Shown here: piece by piece, positions 18,460-61,698 of the stretch
Layout: the number at the start of each line of letters is the position of its first letter
Position numbering within the stretch: position 1 is the stretch's first letter
Source: an uncultured Chloroflexia bacterium
GTDB lineage: Bacteria; Chloroflexota; Limnocylindria; Limnocylindrales; CSP1-4
Assembly (NCBI GenBank): GCA_963748625.1
Contig: CAVVJT010000010.1
Coordinates: forward strand, 672,001 to 736,000
DNA: 64,000 bases
Reading direction: 5' to 3'
The notes under the pieces: model-generated
Databases searched by the model: none
What the model saw: only the letters and a program-made list of their open reading frames with translations
Told to the model about the DNA's origin: nothing
Program-made: the position numbers and the translations under genes

Positions 18460-19077
18460 CTAGAGCGCCCTCCGGCCCTGGAGCGCCCGGATGAGGGTCA
18501 CGTCATCGGCGTACTCGAGATCGCCCCCCACGGGCAGGCCGCGTGCAATACGTGTCACCGACGCGACGAGGCCGTCGAGGCGCTCGCCAAGGTACATCGC
18601 GGTCGCCTCGCCCTCGAGCGTGGGGTTGGTGGCGATGATGACCTCCTCGATCTGCGCACCGTCACGCTTCGCCTCCGCAGCCCGCTCGAGGAGCTCGCGC
18701 ACCTTGAGCCGGTCCGGTCCGATGCCGTCGATCGGGCTGATCGCGCCATGGAGGACGTGATAGCGGCCCTTGAACTCGCCCGTCCGCTCGATCGCGAGCA
18801 CATCGAGCGGCTCCTCCACGACGCACAGGCGGAGCACGTCGCGCCCGGGATCGCGGCAGATCGGACAGAGGGGGGCGTCGCTGATGTTGAAGCAGCGGTC
18901 GCAGAAGACCACCTCGTCGCGCACGGCGATCAGCGCCCGGGCGAGGGCACGCGCCTCAGCATCGGGAGCGCGGAGCAAGTGGTAGGTGAGCCGCTGCGCC
19001 GTCTTGGGTCCGATGCCCGGCAGCCGGGCAAAGGACTCGATCAGGCGTGCGACGGGTTCGATGACCGCGCCGGCCAT
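18460..19077 (-). CDS. recR: Recombination mediator RecR
   Basis: LPGIGPKTAQRL HhH, CxxC..CxxC zinc finger and TOPRIM (ATNPTLEGEATA). Confidence 0.97.
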   Translation of the reverse strand: MAGAVIEPVARLIESFARLPGIGPKTAQRLTYHLLRAPDAEARALARALIAVRDEVVFCDRCFNISDAPLCPICRDPGRDVLRLCVVEEPLDVLAIERTGEFKGRYHVLHGAISPIDGIGPDRLKVRELLERAAEAKRDGAQIEEVIIATNPTLEGEATAMYLGERLDGLVASVTRIARGLPVGGDLEYADDVTLIRALQGRRAL

Positions 19078-19087
19078 GGGCGGGCGA

Positions 19088-19393
19088 TCAGCCCAGGCCG
19101 GGGATGCGCAGGCCGGCCGTCACGGCGCCCATCCGCTGCTCGGCCATGGCCTGGGACGCGCGGAGCGCCTCGTTCACCGCAGAGGTCACGAGGTCCTGGA
19201 GCATCTCCACGTCCTCGGGGTCGACGGCTGCCGGGTCGATCGTGAGGCCCACGAGGACCTGCTTGCCGGTGACGGTGGCCTTGACGACGCCGCCGCCCGC
19301 GGACCCCTCCACCGTTGCGGTCTCCAGCTCCTCCTGGATGCGCGCCATCTGCTGCTGCATCTGCATCAGCATCTTCTGCGGGTTCATGCCCAT
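19088..19393 (-). CDS. ybaB: YbaB/EbfC nucleoid-associated protein
   Basis: GSAGGGVVKATVTG and DPEDVEMLQDLV; lies between dnaX and recR; GGAGGA SD. Confidence 0.93.
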   Translation of the reverse strand: MGMNPQKMLMQMQQQMARIQEELETATVEGSAGGGVVKATVTGKQVLVGLTIDPAAVDPEDVEMLQDLVTSAVNEALRASQAMAEQRMGAVTAGLRIPGLG

Positions 19394-19476
19394 TGGCGCT
19401 GGTCCTCCAGTGCTCGTGATGTGGTGAGGGTCAGTCTCGCGCATGCGCGGCGCTCGTGCACGCCCCTGGACGGCGG

Positions 19477-21192
19477 TCAGCTGACCTCGGGGATGTCGAG
19501 CCGGTCCTCGGCGAAGATGCGGTGTGCCTCAGCCAGGATCGCGGCCGCCTCCTGGTCATCGGGAAGGGGCGGCACGAGCTCCAGGTTCGTCGCAACGAGC
19601 CGGACCCCGACCTCGTGGCCGAGGAAGGCGCCGATGCAGCTCTCGAGGAGCGGCCTGCGGCGCTCGGTCAGATCCTTGAGGAACGCCTTCTCCTCGGGGA
19701 ACCCGATGGTGACGATCCGGCCCTCGATCCCCATCGGCCGGCAGTCGACGACGGCGGCCTTGGCCGCGGGACTCCGCGCGGCGATCGCGGCCACGACCGT
19801 CGTCCAGCCGCCACGGAGGCGCTCGAGGTCATCGTCGATGGGGATCGGGGCGCCAGGAGCCGGAGGCGGCGCCGGATCGGACGGGGGGGCCGCTACCTCG
19901 GGCGGTGCGGGGTCGGGATGCGGAGTCGGGGTGACGAGGGCGGGGGTCGGGGTCGGGGCCGGGGTCGGGGCCGGGGTCGGGGCCGGGGTCGGGGCCAGGG
20001 TCGGGGCCGGGGTCGGGGCCGGGGTCGGGGCGACGGGGGCCGGGGTCGGGGCGACGGGGGCCGGGGCCGGGGCGACGGGGGCCGGGGCCGGGGTCGGGGT
20101 CGGGGCGGATGACGACGATGGCGCCACGGCAACCGGTCGGACCGCCAGAGGCGCTGAGGGAGCTGCCTCGAGCAGGGCGAGCTCCAACTGCAGCCGCAGA
20201 CCGCCGGGTCCGAGCCGCGTGGGGTCGATCGAGGCGAGCCGGCGGGCGGCGGCGGTCACCCCGGGGTTGGTCCCCGCTCCCGACGCGAGATCGGCGAGGA
20301 GCTGCGCACGCAGCGCATCGACGGCCTGGTCAAGGAAGGCTCGCAGGTCGCGACCACGCTCCTCGAGGGCATCGAGCTGGGCGATGCCGACCGCCGCGTC
20401 CCCGGTGACGAGTGCGTTCCCGAACGCCTCCACCAGCTCCCCGTCGGCGAGTCCAAGGAGCTCCCGGACAGCATCGGCCGTGATCGGCCCGGACGTGGAG
20501 GCCAGCAGCTGGTCGAGGATCGATTCGGCGTCGCGCATGCCGCCGGCAGCGAGGCCGGCGATGACGGCCACGGCGTCGGGGTCGGCTGCCCGACCATCTG
20601 CGCTGAGGATCCGCTCCAGCTTGCCGCTGATCTCGGGAATGGTCAGCCGACGCACGTCATAGCGCTGCAGGCGCGACAGGATCGCGGGAGGGAAGCCCTG
20701 CGGGTGAGTGGACGCGAACATGAAGACGACGAAGTCGGGGGGCTCCTCGAGCGACTTGAGCAACGCGTTCCACGCGTCCTTCGTGATCTGGTGCGCCTCG
20801 TCGAGGATGTAGACCTTGCGCCGCAGCTCCCCGGGCGGGTAGTTGATGCGCTCGCGCAGCTCACGGATGCTGTCGATGCCGCGGTTGGACGCGGCGTCGA
20901 TCTCGATGACGTCGAGGGTGGCCCCATCACGGATGGCCGTGCAGGCCGTGCAGCGATCGCAGGGATCGGCGTTTGCCGCGAGGTCCAGGCAGTTGACGGC
21001 CTTGGCGACGATGCGGGCCAGGGAGGTCTTGCCGGTGCCGCGCGGGCCCGTGAAGAGGAGCGCGTGCGAGACCTGGCCGGTCGCCACCGCGTTGCGCAGC
21101 GTGGCGACCACCGCCTCCTGGCCGACGATCTCGGAGAACGTCTGGGCGCGCCAGCGGCGGTAGAGGGCCTGGTGGGGTGTCCCTGTCGTCAA
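19477..21192 (-). CDS. dnaX: DNA polymerase III subunit gamma/tau
   Basis: ALYRRWR, GPRGTGKT, EIDAASN and ALLKSLEEPP; CAGGAG SD before TTG at 21192. Confidence 0.95.
   Translation of the reverse strand: MTTGTPHQALYRRWRAQTFSEIVGQEAVVATLRNAVATGQVSHALLFTGPRGTGKTSLARIVAKAVNCLDLAANADPCDRCTACTAIRDGATLDVIEIDAASNRGIDSIRELRERINYPPGELRRKVYILDEAHQITKDAWNALLKSLEEPPDFVVFMFASTHPQGFPPAILSRLQRYDVRRLTIPEISGKLERILSADGRAADPDAVAVIAGLAAGGMRDAESILDQLLASTSGPITADAVRELLGLADGELVEAFGNALVTGDAAVGIAQLDALEERGRDLRAFLDQAVDALRAQLLADLASGAGTNPGVTAAARRLASIDPTRLGPGGLRLQLELALLEAAPSAPLAVRPVAVAPSSSSAPTPTPAPAPVAPAPAPVAPTPAPVAPTPAPTPAPTLAPTPAPTPAPTPAPTPTPALVTPTPHPDPAPPEVAAPPSDPAPPPAPGAPIPIDDDLERLRGGWTTVVAAIAARSPAAKAAVVDCRPMGIEGRIVTIGFPEEKAFLKDLTERRRPLLESCIGAFLGHEVGVRLVATNLELVPPLPDDQEAAAILAEAHRIFAEDRLDIPEVS
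19940..20106 (-). repeat. 12-bp tandem repeat encoding a (PAPT)n linker in DnaX
   Basis: Repeated GGGGTCGGGGCC units on the + strand. Confidence 0.85.
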
Positions 21193-21237
21193 CGTCGCTC
21201 CTGCTCGATGGGCATGGGGCGGCCGGGTTGGAGAAGT

Positions 21238-21503
21238 GCCGTGCACCCTCCGTCGATACGGACGCACCCGCGCCCAGCGGTGAGCGCGGCTCGGACCAGG
21301 CCGTTCCGCGGCACCCGGCGATCATCGCTGAGTGCTGCTTCCTTCCGGACCTGACACGGTTCACGAGTCGCCGCTGCGCGGGACCCGGTCCTCAACGTCG
21401 CGAACACCGTCGGCTCTCGAGAACGCCGACCTCGGGAGGGAATTCAGCCCTGCTGGAGCGGATTGCAGGTACAGGGCACCGCTAGTTCCCCGCCTAGCAC
21501 GGC
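21238..21503 (-). ncRNA. ffs: Large (Alu-domain-containing) bacterial SRP RNA
   Basis: Helix-8 motif TGTCAGGTCCGGAAGGAAGCAGCA; paired ends GCCGTGC..GCACGGC; TAGACT -10 upstream; sits directly before dnaX. Confidence 0.93.
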
Positions 21504-21626: not shown

Positions 21627-21714
21627 TGGCGGAGAGGGCGGGATTTGAACCCGCGATGGGTTGCCCCATACCGCATTTCCAGTGCGGCGCCCTAGGCCAC
21701 TAGGCGACCTCTCC
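21627..21714 (-). tRNA. tRNA-Ser(GGA)
   Basis: CCGCA-CTGGAAA-TGCGG anticodon arm, long variable arm, GCCA end. Confidence 0.96.
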
Positions 21715-21731
21715 GCCGCCAAGAATAGCAA

Positions 21732-21757
21732 GACCCGACGAGTTGCCTCGTCGGGTC
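21732..21757 (-). terminator. Hairpin between the two tRNA-Ser genes
   Basis: GACCCGACGAG-TTGC-CTCGTCGGGTC perfect inverted repeat. Confidence 0.7.
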
Positions 21758-21774
21758 CATCAGCTGGGCACCTG

Positions 21775-21862
21775 TGGCGGAGAGGGTGGGATTCGAACCC
21801 ACGCTAGCTCTCGCTAGACCGCTTTTCGAGAGCGGCACCATCAACCACTCGGACACCTCTCC
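21775..21862 (-). tRNA. tRNA-Ser(CGA)
   Basis: CCGCT-CTCGAAA-AGCGG anticodon arm, long variable arm, GCCA end. Confidence 0.96.
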
Positions 21863-21951: not shown

Positions 21952-23109
21952 TCAGGGCGTGCTGGCGTACGGGGCAGGCCACCGACGCATGGCGATGACC
22001 GCACCCACCGGCGTGGCGATCGCGGCCACCGCGAGCACGGCGGACACCGAGCCTGTCGCAGTCACCAGCGGCAGGCCCGCGGCGGCGACCAGGAGGGAGC
22101 CGACCGCGCCGGTGGCAAAGTGCAGGGCAGAGGCCGCCGCCTGGCGGTCCGGCGGAGCGGAGGCCAGCACGGCGGCGAGCGAGGGGAGCGCGGTCCAGGC
22201 GAACCCGGCCCCGAACAGCAGCCTTGCCGCGACAAGGAATGACGGCGTCGGGGCAAGGGCGGTGAGCAGGCCCGAGACCGCCAGGAGCAGGCCGGCGACC
22301 AGGAACATGCGCCGGCCACCGAGCACCCGCAGCACGACAGGCACAGCGAGGAAGGCGGGCACCTCGACGATCGTCCCCGCCGCGATCGCGAGGCCGATCT
22401 CCCAGCCGGAGCCACCGAGCTCCGCGATCCGCGGTCCGGTGAAGATCGTCGGGGCACTCGCGCCGGCGTAGACGACCGCGAGCGCGGCCAGGAACACTGG
22501 CGAGCGGCCCACCCCGGTCCGGACCGCACGGATCATGCTCTCGCCGCCGGCCTCCGCCAACCCGGTGCCCCGGCGCAGCTCGCTGCCCAGGCGCACGGCG
22601 ACCACCGCCGCCGTCGCGGCGCACAGGCCCGCCCCGAAAATCCCCGGCGCGGCCCATGCGAGTCCCGAGAAGGAGACGGCCGCCCCGACGATGAGGGCCG
22701 CAAGGATGTACCCGGTGGAGGCGCCGACCCGCACGCGTGCGTACTTGGTGCGACTCCCCTCGAACCGCGCCAGGGCCAGGGAGTCGGCGAGCGGCGCGAA
22801 CGCCGAGGACACCATCGACCAGGCGAGGAACGAGACGATCAGCACCCACAGCACGCCTGCGGCGTGGCCGAATGCCGCGGGCACGCCCGCCAGGAAGGCG
22901 ACCACGAGGATCCGCCTTCGTCCATGCCGGTCCCCAAGGCGTCCCCACGTGGGGGCGGCGATGAGCGTCAGGATCGCCGCTGCGGCGGCCAGCGGCCCCA
23001 CGAGCGCTGCCGGCAGTCCAGCGTTGATCAGGAGAACAGCCGCGAACGGACCGATCGCGCCATAGCTGGACCCGCGGAGCAGGAAGAGGGCGAGGAGGCG
23101 GAGCGTCAT
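21952..23109 (-). CDS. MFS transporter
   Basis: About 12 hydrophobic segments; motif A GRLGDRHGRR. Confidence 0.85.
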   Translation of the reverse strand: MTLRLLALFLLRGSSYGAIGPFAAVLLINAGLPAALVGPLAAAAAILTLIAAPTWGRLGDRHGRRRILVVAFLAGVPAAFGHAAGVLWVLIVSFLAWSMVSSAFAPLADSLALARFEGSRTKYARVRVGASTGYILAALIVGAAVSFSGLAWAAPGIFGAGLCAATAAVVAVRLGSELRRGTGLAEAGGESMIRAVRTGVGRSPVFLAALAVVYAGASAPTIFTGPRIAELGGSGWEIGLAIAAGTIVEVPAFLAVPVVLRVLGGRRMFLVAGLLLAVSGLLTALAPTPSFLVAARLLFGAGFAWTALPSLAAVLASAPPDRQAAASALHFATGAVGSLLVAAAGLPLVTATGSVSAVLAVAAIATPVGAVIAMRRWPAPYASTP

Positions 23110-23134: not shown

Positions 23135-23581
23135 TCAAGCCCCCACCGATGCCTCCTGGCCTGCAAGCTCCTCAGCCTCGGCGCGACAGATCCCGGAGAC
23201 CACCTCGAGGCGGCGCCCGAGGGCCGGGTGCCGGGCCAGCTGGACCACCGTGCCGGCAGCGCCCGAGACAGGATTCGGGGCGGCGTACACCAGCATTGCG
23301 GCATCACATTCGAGGAGGGCGCCAACGCACATGGGACAGGGCTCGAGGGTGGTGAAGATGGCGATGTCCGAGAGACGCGGCGTGCCGAGCTTGCGGGCGG
23401 CCTCGCGAAGCACCGCGACGACCGCGTGGGCGGTCGGGTCCGCGCCATCGCCCGCCGCACAGGACCCGCGGGCCACCATCGCGTCGTTGAGTACCGCCAC
23501 CGCGCCGACCGCAGGGGCACCCCGGGCGGCGGCGGCCCGGGCCTCCGCGAGCGCCTCCCCCATGAACAGCGCGTAGTTCAT
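23135..23581 (-). CDS. tadA: TadA-like nucleoside deaminase lacking the catalytic Glu
   Basis: FMGEALAEA..VGAV..DPTAHAV..TTLEPCPMCVGA; located near tRNA-Ser(CGA), ffs and dnaX; TATCAT lies 7 nt before the ATG. Confidence 0.8.
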   Translation of the reverse strand: MNYALFMGEALAEARAAAARGAPAVGAVAVLNDAMVARGSCAAGDGADPTAHAVVAVLREAARKLGTPRLSDIAIFTTLEPCPMCVGALLECDAAMLVYAAPNPVSGAAGTVVQLARHPALGRRLEVVSGICRAEAEELAGQEASVGA

Positions 23582-23746
23582 GCAATCGATGATAACCACT
23601 TGGCCGTCGCGCTACGATGACCCTGAACCGTGCCGCATCCCCGGCGCAGCAAGCGCCGGCCCGCATCGTGGCGTGCGATGCGCGCTCCCGGACGGCACCT
23701 CGCTATCCCCCCGGCCGGCGGCCGGGGCCAACCGGAGCCTCCACGC

Positions 23747-24937
23747 ATGGCTGCACCCCAGCGCATCGGAATCCTGACCGGCGGCGGCGACGTCCCCGGC
23801 CTCAACGCGGTCATCAAGAGCGTCGTCTACCGGGCGACCGACCTCGGGTACGAGGTCCTCGGCATCCGCCGTGGCTGGGAGGGCCTGACCCACCAGCGCC
23901 GCAGTCCCGAGCTGGACCCGGAATACGTGCGGATCCTGGACCGGATCAACACCCGGACCATCGACCGGACCGGCGGCACGATCCTGCACTCCTCGCGCAC
24001 GAACCCGCGCAAGATGCGGGCGAAGTCCTTCCCCGCCTGGCTGGACCCGAAGACGGTCGCCGGCAAGGAGACCGCGGAAGGTGTCTTCGATCTCACCGAC
24101 CATGTCCTCGACACGATCGAGCACCTTGGCCTGACGCACCTCGTCACCATCGGCGGCGACGACACGCTCTCCTTCTCGTCCGTCCTCTACGGGCGCGGCC
24201 TGCCGCTCGTCGCGATCCCCAAGACGATGGACAACGACGTCAACGGGACCGAGTACTGCATCGGCTTCTCGTCTGCGATCACCCGGGCGAAGGAGGTCCT
24301 CAACCGCCAGCGCACGACCCTCGGGTCGCACGAACGCATCGGCGTGTTCCGCATCTTCGGCCGGGATGCCGGCTTCACTGCGCTCTACACGGCGTACGTG
24401 ACCAGCACCCGGGCGGTCATCCCCGAGTTCAACTACGACATCAAGGCCCTGGCGGAGGTGCTCAAGGAGGACCACCGCAACAACCCGTCGCGCTACGCCA
24501 TCGTGATCACCGCCGAGGGCGCGATGTGGGAAGGCGGCCACATGCAGGAGACGGGCGAGGCTGACGCCTTCGGACACCGGCACAAGATGAACGTGGGCGA
24601 GGTCCTCGCGTCGGAGCTCAAGAGCCTGACCGGCATCGAGTCGGTTGCGTCCGACCTCACCTACGACCTGCGCTCGGGCGAGCCGGACATGCTTGATTCG
24701 ATGGTCGCCTCGACCTTCGCCAACGTGGCGATGGACCTCATCCGTGACGGCATCGGCGGGCGCATGGTCGCCATCCGTGACGGCAAGTACAGCCACGTGT
24801 CCCTGGCCGAGACGGGCAAGCCGCCGCGCCGCGTCCAGCTCGACGCCTACGACCTGGAGCGCTTCCGCCCGAAGTACTCGGACAAGCTGGGCTCGCCGCT
24901 CCTGCTGACCCCGTCGCTGGGGCCGGTGGTCGACTGA
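23747..24937 (+). CDS. pfkA: 6-phosphofructokinase (PfkA family), PPi-type signature
   Basis: ILTGGGDVPGLN, GGTILHSSR, IGGDDT and PKTMDND. Confidence 0.9.
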   Translation: MAAPQRIGILTGGGDVPGLNAVIKSVVYRATDLGYEVLGIRRGWEGLTHQRRSPELDPEYVRILDRINTRTIDRTGGTILHSSRTNPRKMRAKSFPAWLDPKTVAGKETAEGVFDLTDHVLDTIEHLGLTHLVTIGGDDTLSFSSVLYGRGLPLVAIPKTMDNDVNGTEYCIGFSSAITRAKEVLNRQRTTLGSHERIGVFRIFGRDAGFTALYTAYVTSTRAVIPEFNYDIKALAEVLKEDHRNNPSRYAIVITAEGAMWEGGHMQETGEADAFGHRHKMNVGEVLASELKSLTGIESVASDLTYDLRSGEPDMLDSMVASTFANVAMDLIRDGIGGRMVAIRDGKYSHVSLAETGKPPRRVQLDAYDLERFRPKYSDKLGSPLLLTPSLGPVVD

Positions 24938-36370: not shown

Positions 36371-36446
36371 TGGCGCGCCCGGCGGGACTCGAACCCACGA
36401 CCTTTAGGTCCGCAACCTAACGCTCTATCCGCTGAGCTACGGGCGC
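36371..36446 (-). tRNA. tRNA-Arg(GCG)
   Basis: GCGCCCGTAGCTCAGCGGATAGAGCG-TTAGG-TTGCGGA-CCTAA..GTTCGAGTCCCGCCGGGCGCGCCA; A20 arginine identity element present. Confidence 0.95.
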
Positions 36447-60837: not shown

Positions 60838-61698
60838 TCAGCGGGCAGTGGCACCACGCAGGTCGGCGACGAGCGCCGCAAGCACCCCCACATCGCGGCC
60901 GTCCGGCCCGAGCGCATCCACCAGCGCCGAGGCGACGATCACCCCGTCGGCGCCGGCTTCCGCGATCGCCCGCACATGCGCAGGCTGCGACACCCCGAAG
61001 CCCACGGCCACGGGCACGGGCGACACGGCCTTCACCTCGCGGACGAGGTTGGCGACCGTGGGTGGCAGTGACGTCCGGGCTCCGGTCACGCCCACGAGCG
61101 ACACGCAGTAGAGGAACCCGCCGCTGCGTCGGGCGACCGCCTCCCTGCGGGCCGGCGATGACGTCGGCGCGACCAGGTACACCACGGCGATCCCCGCCTC
61201 GGTGGCCACGGCCTCGAACGGTGCACCCTCGTCGGGCGTCAGGTCGGCGACGATGACGCCGGCCACACCGGCCCGCGCGAGGGCCAGCGCGCGGTCGCGT
61301 CCGTCGCCGCCACCGATGAGCTGGTTCGCGTAGCCCATCGCGACCACCGGGACGCCGGGGCGCGCCGCCGCGATCCTGCCGGTCAGCGCGAGGCTCCGGT
61401 CGAACGTGGCCCCGGCGGCCAGCGCACCCTGGGACGCCCGCTGCAGCGTGGCGCCATCGGCAAGGGGGTCGCTGTACGGGAGGCCGACCTCCAGCAGGTC
61501 TGCGCCGGCGTCGATGGCGGCGCAGGCGATCTCGAACGAGGTCTCCGCGTCCGGGTAGCCGGCGACGACATACGGGATGAGGGCGGCCCGACCGTCAGCG
61601 CTGGCGCGGGTGAAGGCGTCGGCGATGCGCCTGGCGCCGGCGGTGTCGTTGGTGTGCGGCAGGGTCGTCCCCGCCGGCCCTGATGCCCGGAGTGTCAT
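60838..61698 (-). CDS. trpA: Tryptophan synthase alpha subunit
   Basis: EVGLPYSDPLADG, LVAPTS, VSLVGVTG and VGFGVS. Confidence 0.96.
   Translation of the reverse strand: MTLRASGPAGTTLPHTNDTAGARRIADAFTRASADGRAALIPYVVAGYPDAETSFEIACAAIDAGADLLEVGLPYSDPLADGATLQRASQGALAAGATFDRSLALTGRIAAARPGVPVVAMGYANQLIGGGDGRDRALALARAGVAGVIVADLTPDEGAPFEAVATEAGIAVVYLVAPTSSPARREAVARRSGGFLYCVSLVGVTGARTSLPPTVANLVREVKAVSPVPVAVGFGVSQPAHVRAIAEAGADGVIVASALVDALGPDGRDVGVLAALVADLRGATAR

Follow-up and report, generated by a model that had tools for sequence, protein, structure and literature searches.

A TadA-fold protein with valine in place of the catalytic glutamate in a Limnocylindria (Chloroflexota) genome with tRNA-Arg(GCG)

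The tRNA-editing enzyme TadA is usually seen as an enzyme with one job; it is essential in E. coli, its only required substrate is tRNA-Arg(ACG), and bacteria normally carry this tRNA in the place of tRNA-Arg(GCG). In this study, we analysed a 64,000-nucleotide (nt) stretch of DNA from an uncultured Chloroflexia bacterium (GenBank assembly GCA_963748625.1, contig CAVVJT010000010.1, positions 672,001 to 736,000), called the window below, in which a gene on the minus strand (23135..23581) encodes a 148-amino-acid protein with the TadA fold and with valine at the position of the proton-shuttle glutamate. TadA-fold proteins with an aliphatic residue at this position are referred to here as the HAV family, and those with the H-A-E of TadA as HAE proteins.

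The contacts of TadA with its substrate have been described in S. aureus, where the backbone at G37 and G36 is held by R70 and R94, the U33 ribose by D104, and K106 makes contact with the C32-A38 pair (PMC3711424). These four residues were mapped to E. coli positions 74, 98, 108 and 110 by their constant spacing from the zinc-binding histidine. In E. coli TadA, H57, K111 and F149 lie in the region touching the anticodon loop (PMC3711424). The TadA clade has a signature of a glutamate before strand 1, an asparagine within strand 2, a basic residue following strand 4, and a glutamate and a phenylalanine in the C-terminal helix (PMC3239186, PMC3711424); PMC3239186 gives this signature for the TadA/Tad2 clade and remarks that Tad3 is without the glutamate. 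ADAT3 has a valine (V225) together with the zinc ligands H223, C289 and C292 and is inactive (PMC8216470). Supplements aside, our literature searches found no description of a bacterial TadA without the catalytic glutamate. The searches also found no description of a Chloroflexota state with tRNA-Arg(GCG) and without TadA; Chloroflexi are not mentioned in the main text of PMC6063277, whose supplements may list TadA absence by phylum.

The HAV gene, its valine codon and its family

The HAV gene starts with ATG, and an alternative GTG 18 nt upstream would yield 154 amino acids. The protein carries a GADPTAHAVVAVLREA stretch (DPTAHAVVA) and TLEPCPMCVGA. Codon 54 is GTC (23420..23422, minus strand; GAC on the plus strand), which encodes valine at the position of E. 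coli E59 and differs at two nucleotides from both GAA and GAG; window residue n is E. coli n+5, from alignment to an E. coli-derived TadA chain. The zinc ligands are H52 (23426-23428, minus strand) and, within the PCPMC motif (23327..23338, minus strand), C82 (23336-23338) and C85 (23327-23329). They are equivalent to H57, C87 and C90 of E. coli, and C41, N103 and V105 are equivalent to N46, D108 and K110.

Valine is found at this position in all 19 orthologues of the source genus (the source included), encoded by GTC in 11 and by GTG in 8. This genus belongs to f1, which is, like f2 to f5, a family within the class titled Limnocylindria in the records. Among 61 distinct f1 and f4 sequences (21 from the source genus, 22 from other f1 genera and 18 from f4; best matches per genome, duplicates removed), the residue is valine in 58, isoleucine in 1 and leucine in 2, and is never glutamate, and the three zinc ligands are kept in 61/61. 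In contrast, all 38 TadA genes taken from f3, f5 and further families of the phylum have glutamate, the f3 and f5 entries being top-scoring loci. These 38 genes and 68 global representatives form the HAE comparison set (n=106); the 68 were picked for having HAE, and their glutamate is thus by construction. The second-copy loci L080, L094 and L095 (HAE, about 35% identity) were excluded from the HAV set as paralogues. A further 51 family loci from a second collection have V in 49, I in 1 and L in 1, and the 119 nearest clusters at 90% identity have V in 118 and L in 1. Codon 54 (23420-23422) is covered by public contigs from three runs (X1, X3 and X4, of which X3 may be the source sample), and no difference is listed for it. 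A sequence-only reading of this DNA had noted DPTAHAV for HAE through a codon two steps from glutamate, intact zinc ligands and a whole open reading frame (ORF), and all three points are confirmed by the translation, the orthologues and the contigs.

One same-genus orthologue (L166:502-840, G042:C73) reads DPTAHPV, with proline replacing the alanine of H-A-V. The match covers residues 1-79 only, and its truncation was rejected as a sign of decay, since the locus runs into a run of N directly after residue 79.

Comparison of the 61 HAV with the 106 HAE sequences revealed 21 positions with conservation of 90% or more in each group, including (E. coli numbers) D53, T55, H57, A58, L75, T83, E85, P86, C87, M89, C90, G92, A93, G112 and G135. 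The DPTAHA and EPCxMC motifs are present in 61/61 HAV sequences, and TxE is kept. In contrast, N46 is Asn in 103/106 TadA versus 17/61 HAV sequences (Asp in 32, others in 12), R98 is Arg in 102/106 versus 7/61 (D or E in 41, Q in 11, N in 2), position 110 is K or R in 101/106 versus 13/61 (R in all 13; V or I in 27, the rest mixed), and F149 is present in 94/106 versus 0/61, with F148 likewise not kept. The V28 of EVPV is Val in a single HAV sequence of the 61, from an f1 member outside the genus, and the HAV family does not retain the TadA invariants N127/H128 and R153. The source protein has A22, C41 and V105, and no Phe in the C-terminal helix, at the TadA signature places. The sequence-only reading had also described drift of two motifs, and the source protein does have APAVG in place of EVPVG and GSC in place of G-x-N; however, part of this drift is specific to the source or its genus, as N46 is retained in 17/21 genus members (position 41, equivalent to 46, is N, H or C in the genus, and Cys in the source) and the E of EVPVG is kept in 35/40 HAV members outside the genus. 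In addition, HAV proteins are acidic (median isoelectric point 5.0-5.5, net charge -5 to -6), compared with a median isoelectric point of 6.2 for TadA in f3 and 9.3 for other TadA of the phylum. With the invariant anticodon-loop contacts lost and the protein acidic, tRNA binding in the manner of TadA, which the sequence-only reading had offered as a role, is doubtful.

The HAV family also has conserved positions of its own. There are 16 of these: an N-terminal M-N-Y-E-L, A29, A34, M35, V54, F76, V86, A109, A116, S129, R132 and A136. Family members differ from one another in both the length and the sequence of their C-termini; 18/19 genus members end in GA, mostly in [ST]GA.

The HAV protein matches dCMP_cyt_deam_1 and MafB19-deam in Pfam and consists of one deaminase domain from residue 1, without the ADAT3-type N-terminal (ferredoxin-like) tRNA-binding domain. 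Its best sequence matches in PDB are TadA (7cph, E 3.9e-23; 1z3a; 2b3j), and ADAT3 chains follow at E 4e-12. An AlphaFold2 model built with 31 family members (predicted local distance difference test, pLDDT, 89.3; predicted template modelling score 0.87) found TadA structures as the best Foldseek matches, with template modelling (TM) scores of 0.88-0.91 (7cph 0.91) and 0.83 for ADAT3 chains. The protein is collinear with TadA at 33-48% identity, and the profile-profile alignment of the HAV family with canonical TadA spans 147 columns, gap-free, with 100% probability. On the NCBIfam TadA equivalog NF008113, the source protein scores 93.9 bits, below the cut-off of 150, and HAV members score 87-128; the genuine HAE TadA of f3 also reaches only about 130-157 on this model, and 4/151 genomes of our class sample pass the cut-off. 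A homodimer is predicted with a score of 0.77 against 0.00 for the best control, and three runs agree on at least 88% of contacts with a partner pLDDT of at least 88; the 0.77 mark is reached by 20/30 proteins solved as one-chain pairs and by 1/23 solved single chains. The predicted symmetric interface comprises residues 45-50, 52, 55, 58-70, 82-92 and others, including the invariant D48, T50, H52, L70, C82, M84, G87 and A88. This homodimer prediction may reflect likeness to solved TadA dimers.

A maximum likelihood (ML) tree of 77 proteins unites the 31 HAV rows in a single clade (support 100), whose stem measures 0.94 changes per site and which lies inside TadA relative to guanine-deaminase-like outgroups (100). 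The f1 and f4 HAV proteins are reciprocally monophyletic (91 and 90). A search of the source genus found orthologues in 18/24 other genomes, at 71-80% identity. TadA model matches in the class sample (151 genomes, each at least 80% complete) were found in 39/44 f1, 0/6 f2, 47/49 f3, 49/50 f4 and 1/1 f5 genomes. In a phylum sample (121 genomes, each at least 90% complete), an HAV-family profile (A1) scored 219-249 bits in 3/3 f1 and 9/9 f4 genomes, 121-140 bits on canonical TadA and below 92 on everything else, and detected no family member in other classes. The class and phylum tallies include the unpublished-flagged genomes G102, G122, G131, G134, G156, G166 and G206, and L035, L056 and L112, from two unpublished-flagged genomes, were used in the TadA alignment, trees, omega estimates, residue table and tRNA alignment. 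Among the best 80 loci of the second collection, 51 are HAV-family members and 29 are canonical TadA with glutamate; the records are titled Candidatus Limnocylindrales, Limnocylindria, Chloroflexota or 'uncultured Chloroflexia', apart from four members on short contigs (4.8-10.7 kb) that are labelled otherwise and are probably binning errors. Among the best 150 representatives at 50% identity, 36 have HAV and 105 have HAE. P0234, a 154-amino-acid protein of another lineage, has canonical TadA features (EVPVGAV, a C-terminal LLEDFLAARR helix) and yet DPTAHAV; it is an independent Glu-to-Val change elsewhere in the tree, outside the HAV family. Publicly, HAV proteins are named 'tRNA(adenine34) deaminase' (JGI) or 'nucleoside deaminase' (NCBI), and the first label is probably wrong as a statement of function.

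Selection on the gene was estimated with a codon model (GY+F3X4+G4). The resulting omega values were 0.034 for the genus, 0.046 for f1 and 0.052 for f4, compared with 0.067 for the HAE TadA of f3. By the Nei-Gojobori method, the ratio of nonsynonymous to synonymous differences (dN/dS) over 171 genus pairs had a median of 0.19 (range 0.02-0.31) at a median dS of 0.71. The ORFs are intact and of constant length in 61/61 distinct sequences, with the RpoB of f1 and f4 about 0.5 changes per site apart. Taken together, these results show that the HAV gene is under purifying selection as strong as that on f3 TadA, and that, as the sequence-only reading had supposed, it is retained and not decaying.

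The tRNA-Arg set and the deaminases of the source genome

A tRNA-Arg(GCG) gene with the anticodon loop UUGCGGA lies at 36371..36446 on the minus strand of the window (ARAGORN; Rfam tRNA, 70 bits). In the whole source assembly (G000; 4.63 Mb, 10 contigs, 98.3% complete, 71% GC), ARAGORN made 59 tRNA calls, of which those for arginine are one GCG, one good and one doubtful UCG, CCG, two CCU and UCU; no tRNA-Arg(ACG) was found on any of the 10 contigs. The sole call with adenosine at anticodon position 34 (A34) in the genome is a 91-nt 'tRNA-Asp(ATC)' at 61199-61289 of the window (minus strand), and a 79-nt 'tRNA-Arg(TCG)' was called at G000:C10:67828-67906. Both are probable false positives, as they are without the usual D-arm and resemble GC-rich coding sequence.

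No HAE-type TadA was found in the source genome, in which the HAV gene is the best TadA-family match. Two other matches are a guanine deaminase (HAE; 1wkq, E 7.4e-47) and a cytosine-deaminase-like gene. The latter (HGE ... PCDMC; L003:1384-1995, plus strand, equal to G000:C2 about 164942-165553) becomes Arg/Gly-rich after LLYGIP and is probably frameshifted, either as a pseudogene or through an assembly error. Both paralogues are missing from many HAV-bearing genomes, and many of these have a single deaminase match. A third small deaminase type (HAE, APFGAV, NAEPCSMC; about 150 amino acids) was seen at L025, L027 and L080 (G011, G002 and G170); it is 35-41% identical to the HAV protein and occurs in few genomes of the genus, and not in the source genome.

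In relatives, tRNA-Arg genes were counted with an exact pattern (tRNA-Arg D-arm, anticodon and T-arm), not with a full tRNA scan, and reversed-pattern controls gave 0 matches. The ACG pattern was found in 0/44 f1, 0/6 f2, 34/49 f3, 0/50 f4 and 0/1 f5 genomes of the class sample, and the GCG pattern in 39/44 f1 genomes plus the source, 6/6 f2, 2/49 f3, 46/50 f4 and 0/1 f5. Within the class, HAE thus goes with ACG in f3, and HAV with GCG in f1 and f4. Of the two GCG-bearing f3 genomes (G044, 97% complete, and G090, 86%), neither has a TadA-level match, and G044 is nested within f3 in an RpoB tree, which indicates that a switch of anticodon together with TadA loss has happened more than once. In the phylum sample, TadA scored above the cut-off in 9/121 genomes, ACG was found in 10/121 (the same 9 and G193) and GCG in 102/121, so that tRNA-Arg with G34 and without TadA seems to be the majority state in Chloroflexota. 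The sequence-only reading had supposed that the HAV protein was freed by the GCG anticodon, and the presence of GCG, the absence of ACG and their co-distribution across the 151 class and 121 phylum genomes fit this proposal.

The single-gene RpoB tree, in which 35 of 46 rows were read and 11 wrong-strand ORFs (together on a branch 6.03 long) were disregarded, supports the class with 100, f3 with f5 with 100, f1 with f2 with 99, and these two with f4 with 99. The GCG tRNA of the source is 97% identical to that of f2, 88-90% identical to the GCG tRNAs of other classes (f8, f18) and 65-74% identical to the ACG tRNAs of f3. The ACG and GCG tRNAs of f3 have one acceptor stem in common. Judging from these sequences, anticodon switches seem to have been repeated within tRNA lineages, and the tRNA sequences do not settle the direction between ACG and GCG.

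Other observations on decoding and on RpoB were made along with these results. The source genome has a tRNA-Ile(UAU) gene (G000:C10:1271914-1271989) and only two CAU tRNAs, one initiator-like and one elongator-like. The TilS N-terminal family TIGR02432 found nothing in it, while 14/14 reference genomes used as a control gave a match. AUA is apparently read without lysidine, a second departure from usual bacterial decoding in this genome. In addition, RpoB model positions about 293-893 match in one piece in f3, f2 and one f17 genome and are split near 555-595 in f1, f4, f5 and most others (loci L247-L295), which suggests a lineage-specific insert or a divergent segment.

The locus and its neighbours

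In B. subtilis, the order of genes at the tadA locus is yaaJ(tadA)-scr-dnaX-yaaK-recR (PMC10454642). On the minus strand of the window, the HAV gene is followed by a gene for a major facilitator superfamily (MFS) transporter (MFS_1; 21952..23109, 25 nt past the HAV stop), two tRNA-Ser genes (CGA, 21775-21862; GGA, 21627-21714; together 21627..21862), the signal recognition particle (SRP) RNA gene ffs/scr (21239..21502; Bacteria_large_SRP, 183 bits), dnaX (19477-21267), ybaB (19088-19444) and recR (18460-19077), the last three identified by Pfam, and then by the rRNA operon; the tRNA-Ser genes downstream belong to a conserved synteny of the tadA locus. A dnaX gene lies on the same strand at most 1.5 kb downstream of the HAV gene in 14/19 genus loci and in 11/11 longer f4/f1 loci. 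In contrast, dnaX is downstream of 0/29 TadA loci of f3/f5 and 0/10 TadA loci of other families. Since dnaX adjoins the HAV gene and none of the HAE loci of the phylum that were tested, it is the HAV gene that holds the classical tadA position. Together with the phylogeny and the collinear alignment, these results show that the HAV gene descends from tadA, inherited vertically and still at the ancestral locus.

The MFS insertion beside the HAV gene occurs only at the source locus (L004); the other loci in the tblastn database gave no match. A divergent phosphofructokinase gene (PFK; 23747..24937, plus strand; 214.9 bits) is a neighbour at f1 loci and at no f4 or f3 locus. Upstream of the HAV start, a -10-like hexamer, TATCAT, lies 7 nt from the ATG (23589..23594, minus strand) and was recognised by conservation only; TATCAT or TATGAT is found at the same spacing, without a Shine-Dalgarno sequence, in 19/19 genus orthologues. 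The leaderless promoter claimed in the sequence-only reading is thus supported in part: the conserved hexamer makes a leaderless start possible, whereas a consensus promoter scan found no sigma-70 site, no promoter and no terminator. A second motif, ATCCTA[GC]C, is conserved in the genus about 35-40 nt upstream of the HAV start (window about 23610-23625). It reads TAGGAT-like on the opposite strand, where it may serve the divergent phosphofructokinase gene as a -10 box.

Readings of the HAV protein and comparison with known systems

The loss of the glutamate, the loss of the tRNA contacts and the absence of both the substrate tRNA and a catalytic partner are shown by the results above. We consider it likely that the HAV protein is a non-catalytic descendant of TadA that is maintained by selection. 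On this reading, in a lineage without the tRNA that TadA edits, it would now have to do something other than editing.

A course of events can be proposed for this lineage. The families f1, f2 and f4 would decode CGN with tRNA-Arg GCG, UCG and CCG and without an A34 tRNA, so that TadA would have no substrate left. Elsewhere in the phylum, tadA would have been lost, whereas the HAV lineage would have kept and remodelled the protein, first along a long stem branch and then under strong purifying selection. This selection would keep the zinc site, the residues of the predicted homodimer interface and the new family-specific residues (MNYEL, F76, V86, S129, R132 and others), and because these three are preserved, the protein can be read as a likely zinc-stabilised, probably homodimeric pseudo-deaminase that works by binding. 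We lean towards the fuller version of this account, in which, after the swap of ACG for GCG, TadA became a conserved non-catalytic homodimer with a new role through E59V and the loss of its grip on tRNA. It is a speculation that the new conserved polar N-terminal residues and R132 are candidates for a new surface. The simplest history would be a single conversion of TadA into HAV on the stem shared by f1, f2 and f4, after which the small-genome f2 lost the gene. The HAV family may be of older origin, because most other classes already have GCG.

An alternative is that the HAV protein is still an enzyme, using another general base or acting on a new small-molecule or nucleic-acid substrate. The zinc ligands, DPTAHA and EPCxMC kept in 61/61, the 16 family-specific positions with the polar N2, Y3, E4 and R132, the Asp found at the N46 position in 32/61 and the strong selection on the gene would all suit an enzyme. 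We nevertheless find this unlikely, as no acidic residue near the site is conserved family-wide (at position 41 the genus has N, H or C) and position 54 is always aliphatic. To our knowledge, no active member of the deaminase fold is without the glutamate. In ADAT2, the equivalent E73A mutant 'hardly retained any activity' (PMC8216470). A pseudo-deaminase could instead serve as an ADAT3-like subunit that pairs with an active deaminase of the same fold, the heterodimer role that the sequence-only reading had named. A change of E to V with zinc ligands kept is indeed the ADAT3 signature (PMC8216470, PMC3239186), and the fold matches include ADAT3 chains (TM 0.83). However, the idea of a heterodimer fails for want of a catalytic partner in the genome, where the search found no HAE-type TadA and only two paralogues, the guanine deaminase and the frameshifted-looking cytosine-deaminase-like gene; a single deaminase match in many HAV genomes, the lack of an N-terminal domain in a protein of 148 amino acids and the high score of the predicted homodimer also make this reading very improbable.

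We give hardly any weight to the view that the gene is a slowly decaying relic, or DNA kept for signals of the downstream tRNA-Ser, SRP RNA and dnaX genes. The substrate tRNA is gone, the gene is absent from f2 and was not found in some f1 genomes, two representatives (P0122 and P0123) are frameshifted, and the gene lies directly upstream of essential RNA genes, all of which would be expected of a relic or a signal; against this view, which the selection data contradict, stand omega values of 0.03-0.05, at or below the 0.067 of f3 TadA, ORFs intact in 61/61 sequences over two families, and 21 shared and 16 family-specific conserved protein positions, beyond what DNA signals explain. For the valine as a sequencing or assembly error in an organism that truly has HAE, we found no supporting point, and its chance is practically nil: two nucleotide changes would be required, the residue is aliphatic in 19/19 genus orthologues and in every f1 and f4 member examined, and independent contigs agree.

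Several observations weigh against a maintained, non-catalytic TadA descendant. The loss of catalysis is one that we infer by analogy with the role of the glutamate in homologues (PMC8216470), and the conservation of the zinc ligands may reflect only the stability of the fold. The source copy is the most divergent in its genus, with an end branch of 0.28 and two substitutions, E4A and T74A, where the family is conserved to at least 95%, although it is intact despite this divergence. P0122 and P0123, which are representatives of metagenomic clusters, have out-of-frame C-terminal tails, through sequencing error or real decay. Some relatives can dispense with the gene: no copy was detected in f2 (0/16 in one search, 0/6 in the class sample), in 5/44 f1 genomes of the class sample, or in 6/24 genomes of the genus search, of which 2 gave only paralogue-level matches and 4 (62-88% complete) none; the f1 and genus genomes without a match are 62-97% complete. 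The grouping of the HAV clade with f3 TadA is weak in the protein tree (85-86), and the tRNA counts in relatives come from a pattern search. A look-up of sequencing runs returned none of RNA. Finally, no operon partner was found, the f4 neighbours being different, PFK confined to f1 and the MFS gene to the source, and the neighbourhood gave no functional hint beyond the tRNA, ffs and dnaX genes.

In the reading of the HAV protein as a maintained pseudo-deaminase, the job of TadA has vanished while the protein has been kept under strong selection in two families, with its chemistry switched off as in ADAT3. If true, bacterial TadA has, or readily acquires, a second function that is independent of deamination, the lineage is a natural and independent replay of the step that made ADAT3 in eukaryotes, and it offers a living model for an essential tRNA-editing enzyme turning into a pseudoenzyme. 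The case bears on the origin of pseudoenzymes from essential RNA-modifying enzymes and on the joint loss or rewiring of anticodons and modification enzymes. The phylum pattern, with GCG in 102/121 and TadA in 9/121 genomes, matters for annotation and for codon-usage models.

Compared with the bacterial TadA of E. coli, B. subtilis (YaaJ) and S. aureus, the HAV protein has the same fold, a collinear alignment, the zinc triad with DPTAHA and TxEPCxMC, and a gene upstream of scr/ffs, dnaX, ybaB and recR; that it would form a homodimer like TadA is a prediction. It differs in having V, I or L for Glu59, in the loss of N46, R98, K110, F148/149, R153 and V28, in its acidity, in its score of 93.9 bits under the cut-off of 150, and in a genome without tRNA-Arg(ACG). 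With ADAT3/Tad3 it shares valine for the proton-shuttle glutamate, kept zinc ligands and lost tRNA determinants (PMC8216470), both being pseudo-deaminases from a TadA-like ancestor. Whereas ADAT3 has an N-terminal tRNA-binding domain, a catalytic ADAT2 partner and its own C-terminus capping the zinc, the HAV protein is a single domain of 148 amino acids, with no catalytic TadA in the genome and apparently no C-terminal cap that is conserved family-wide. In our tree, which took in no ADAT3, the HAV family would have arisen inside bacterial TadA, independently of ADAT3. As in the TadA-less Mollicutes, tRNA-Arg(ACG) has given way to GCG, a UCG tRNA is present and TadA activity is no longer needed (PMC3711424). 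In Mollicutes, however, weakened tadA alleles were followed by loss of the gene (PMC3711424), whereas in the HAV lineage, with a free-living organism and a genome of 4.6 Mb and 71% GC, the gene was kept and conserved after losing the catalytic residue.

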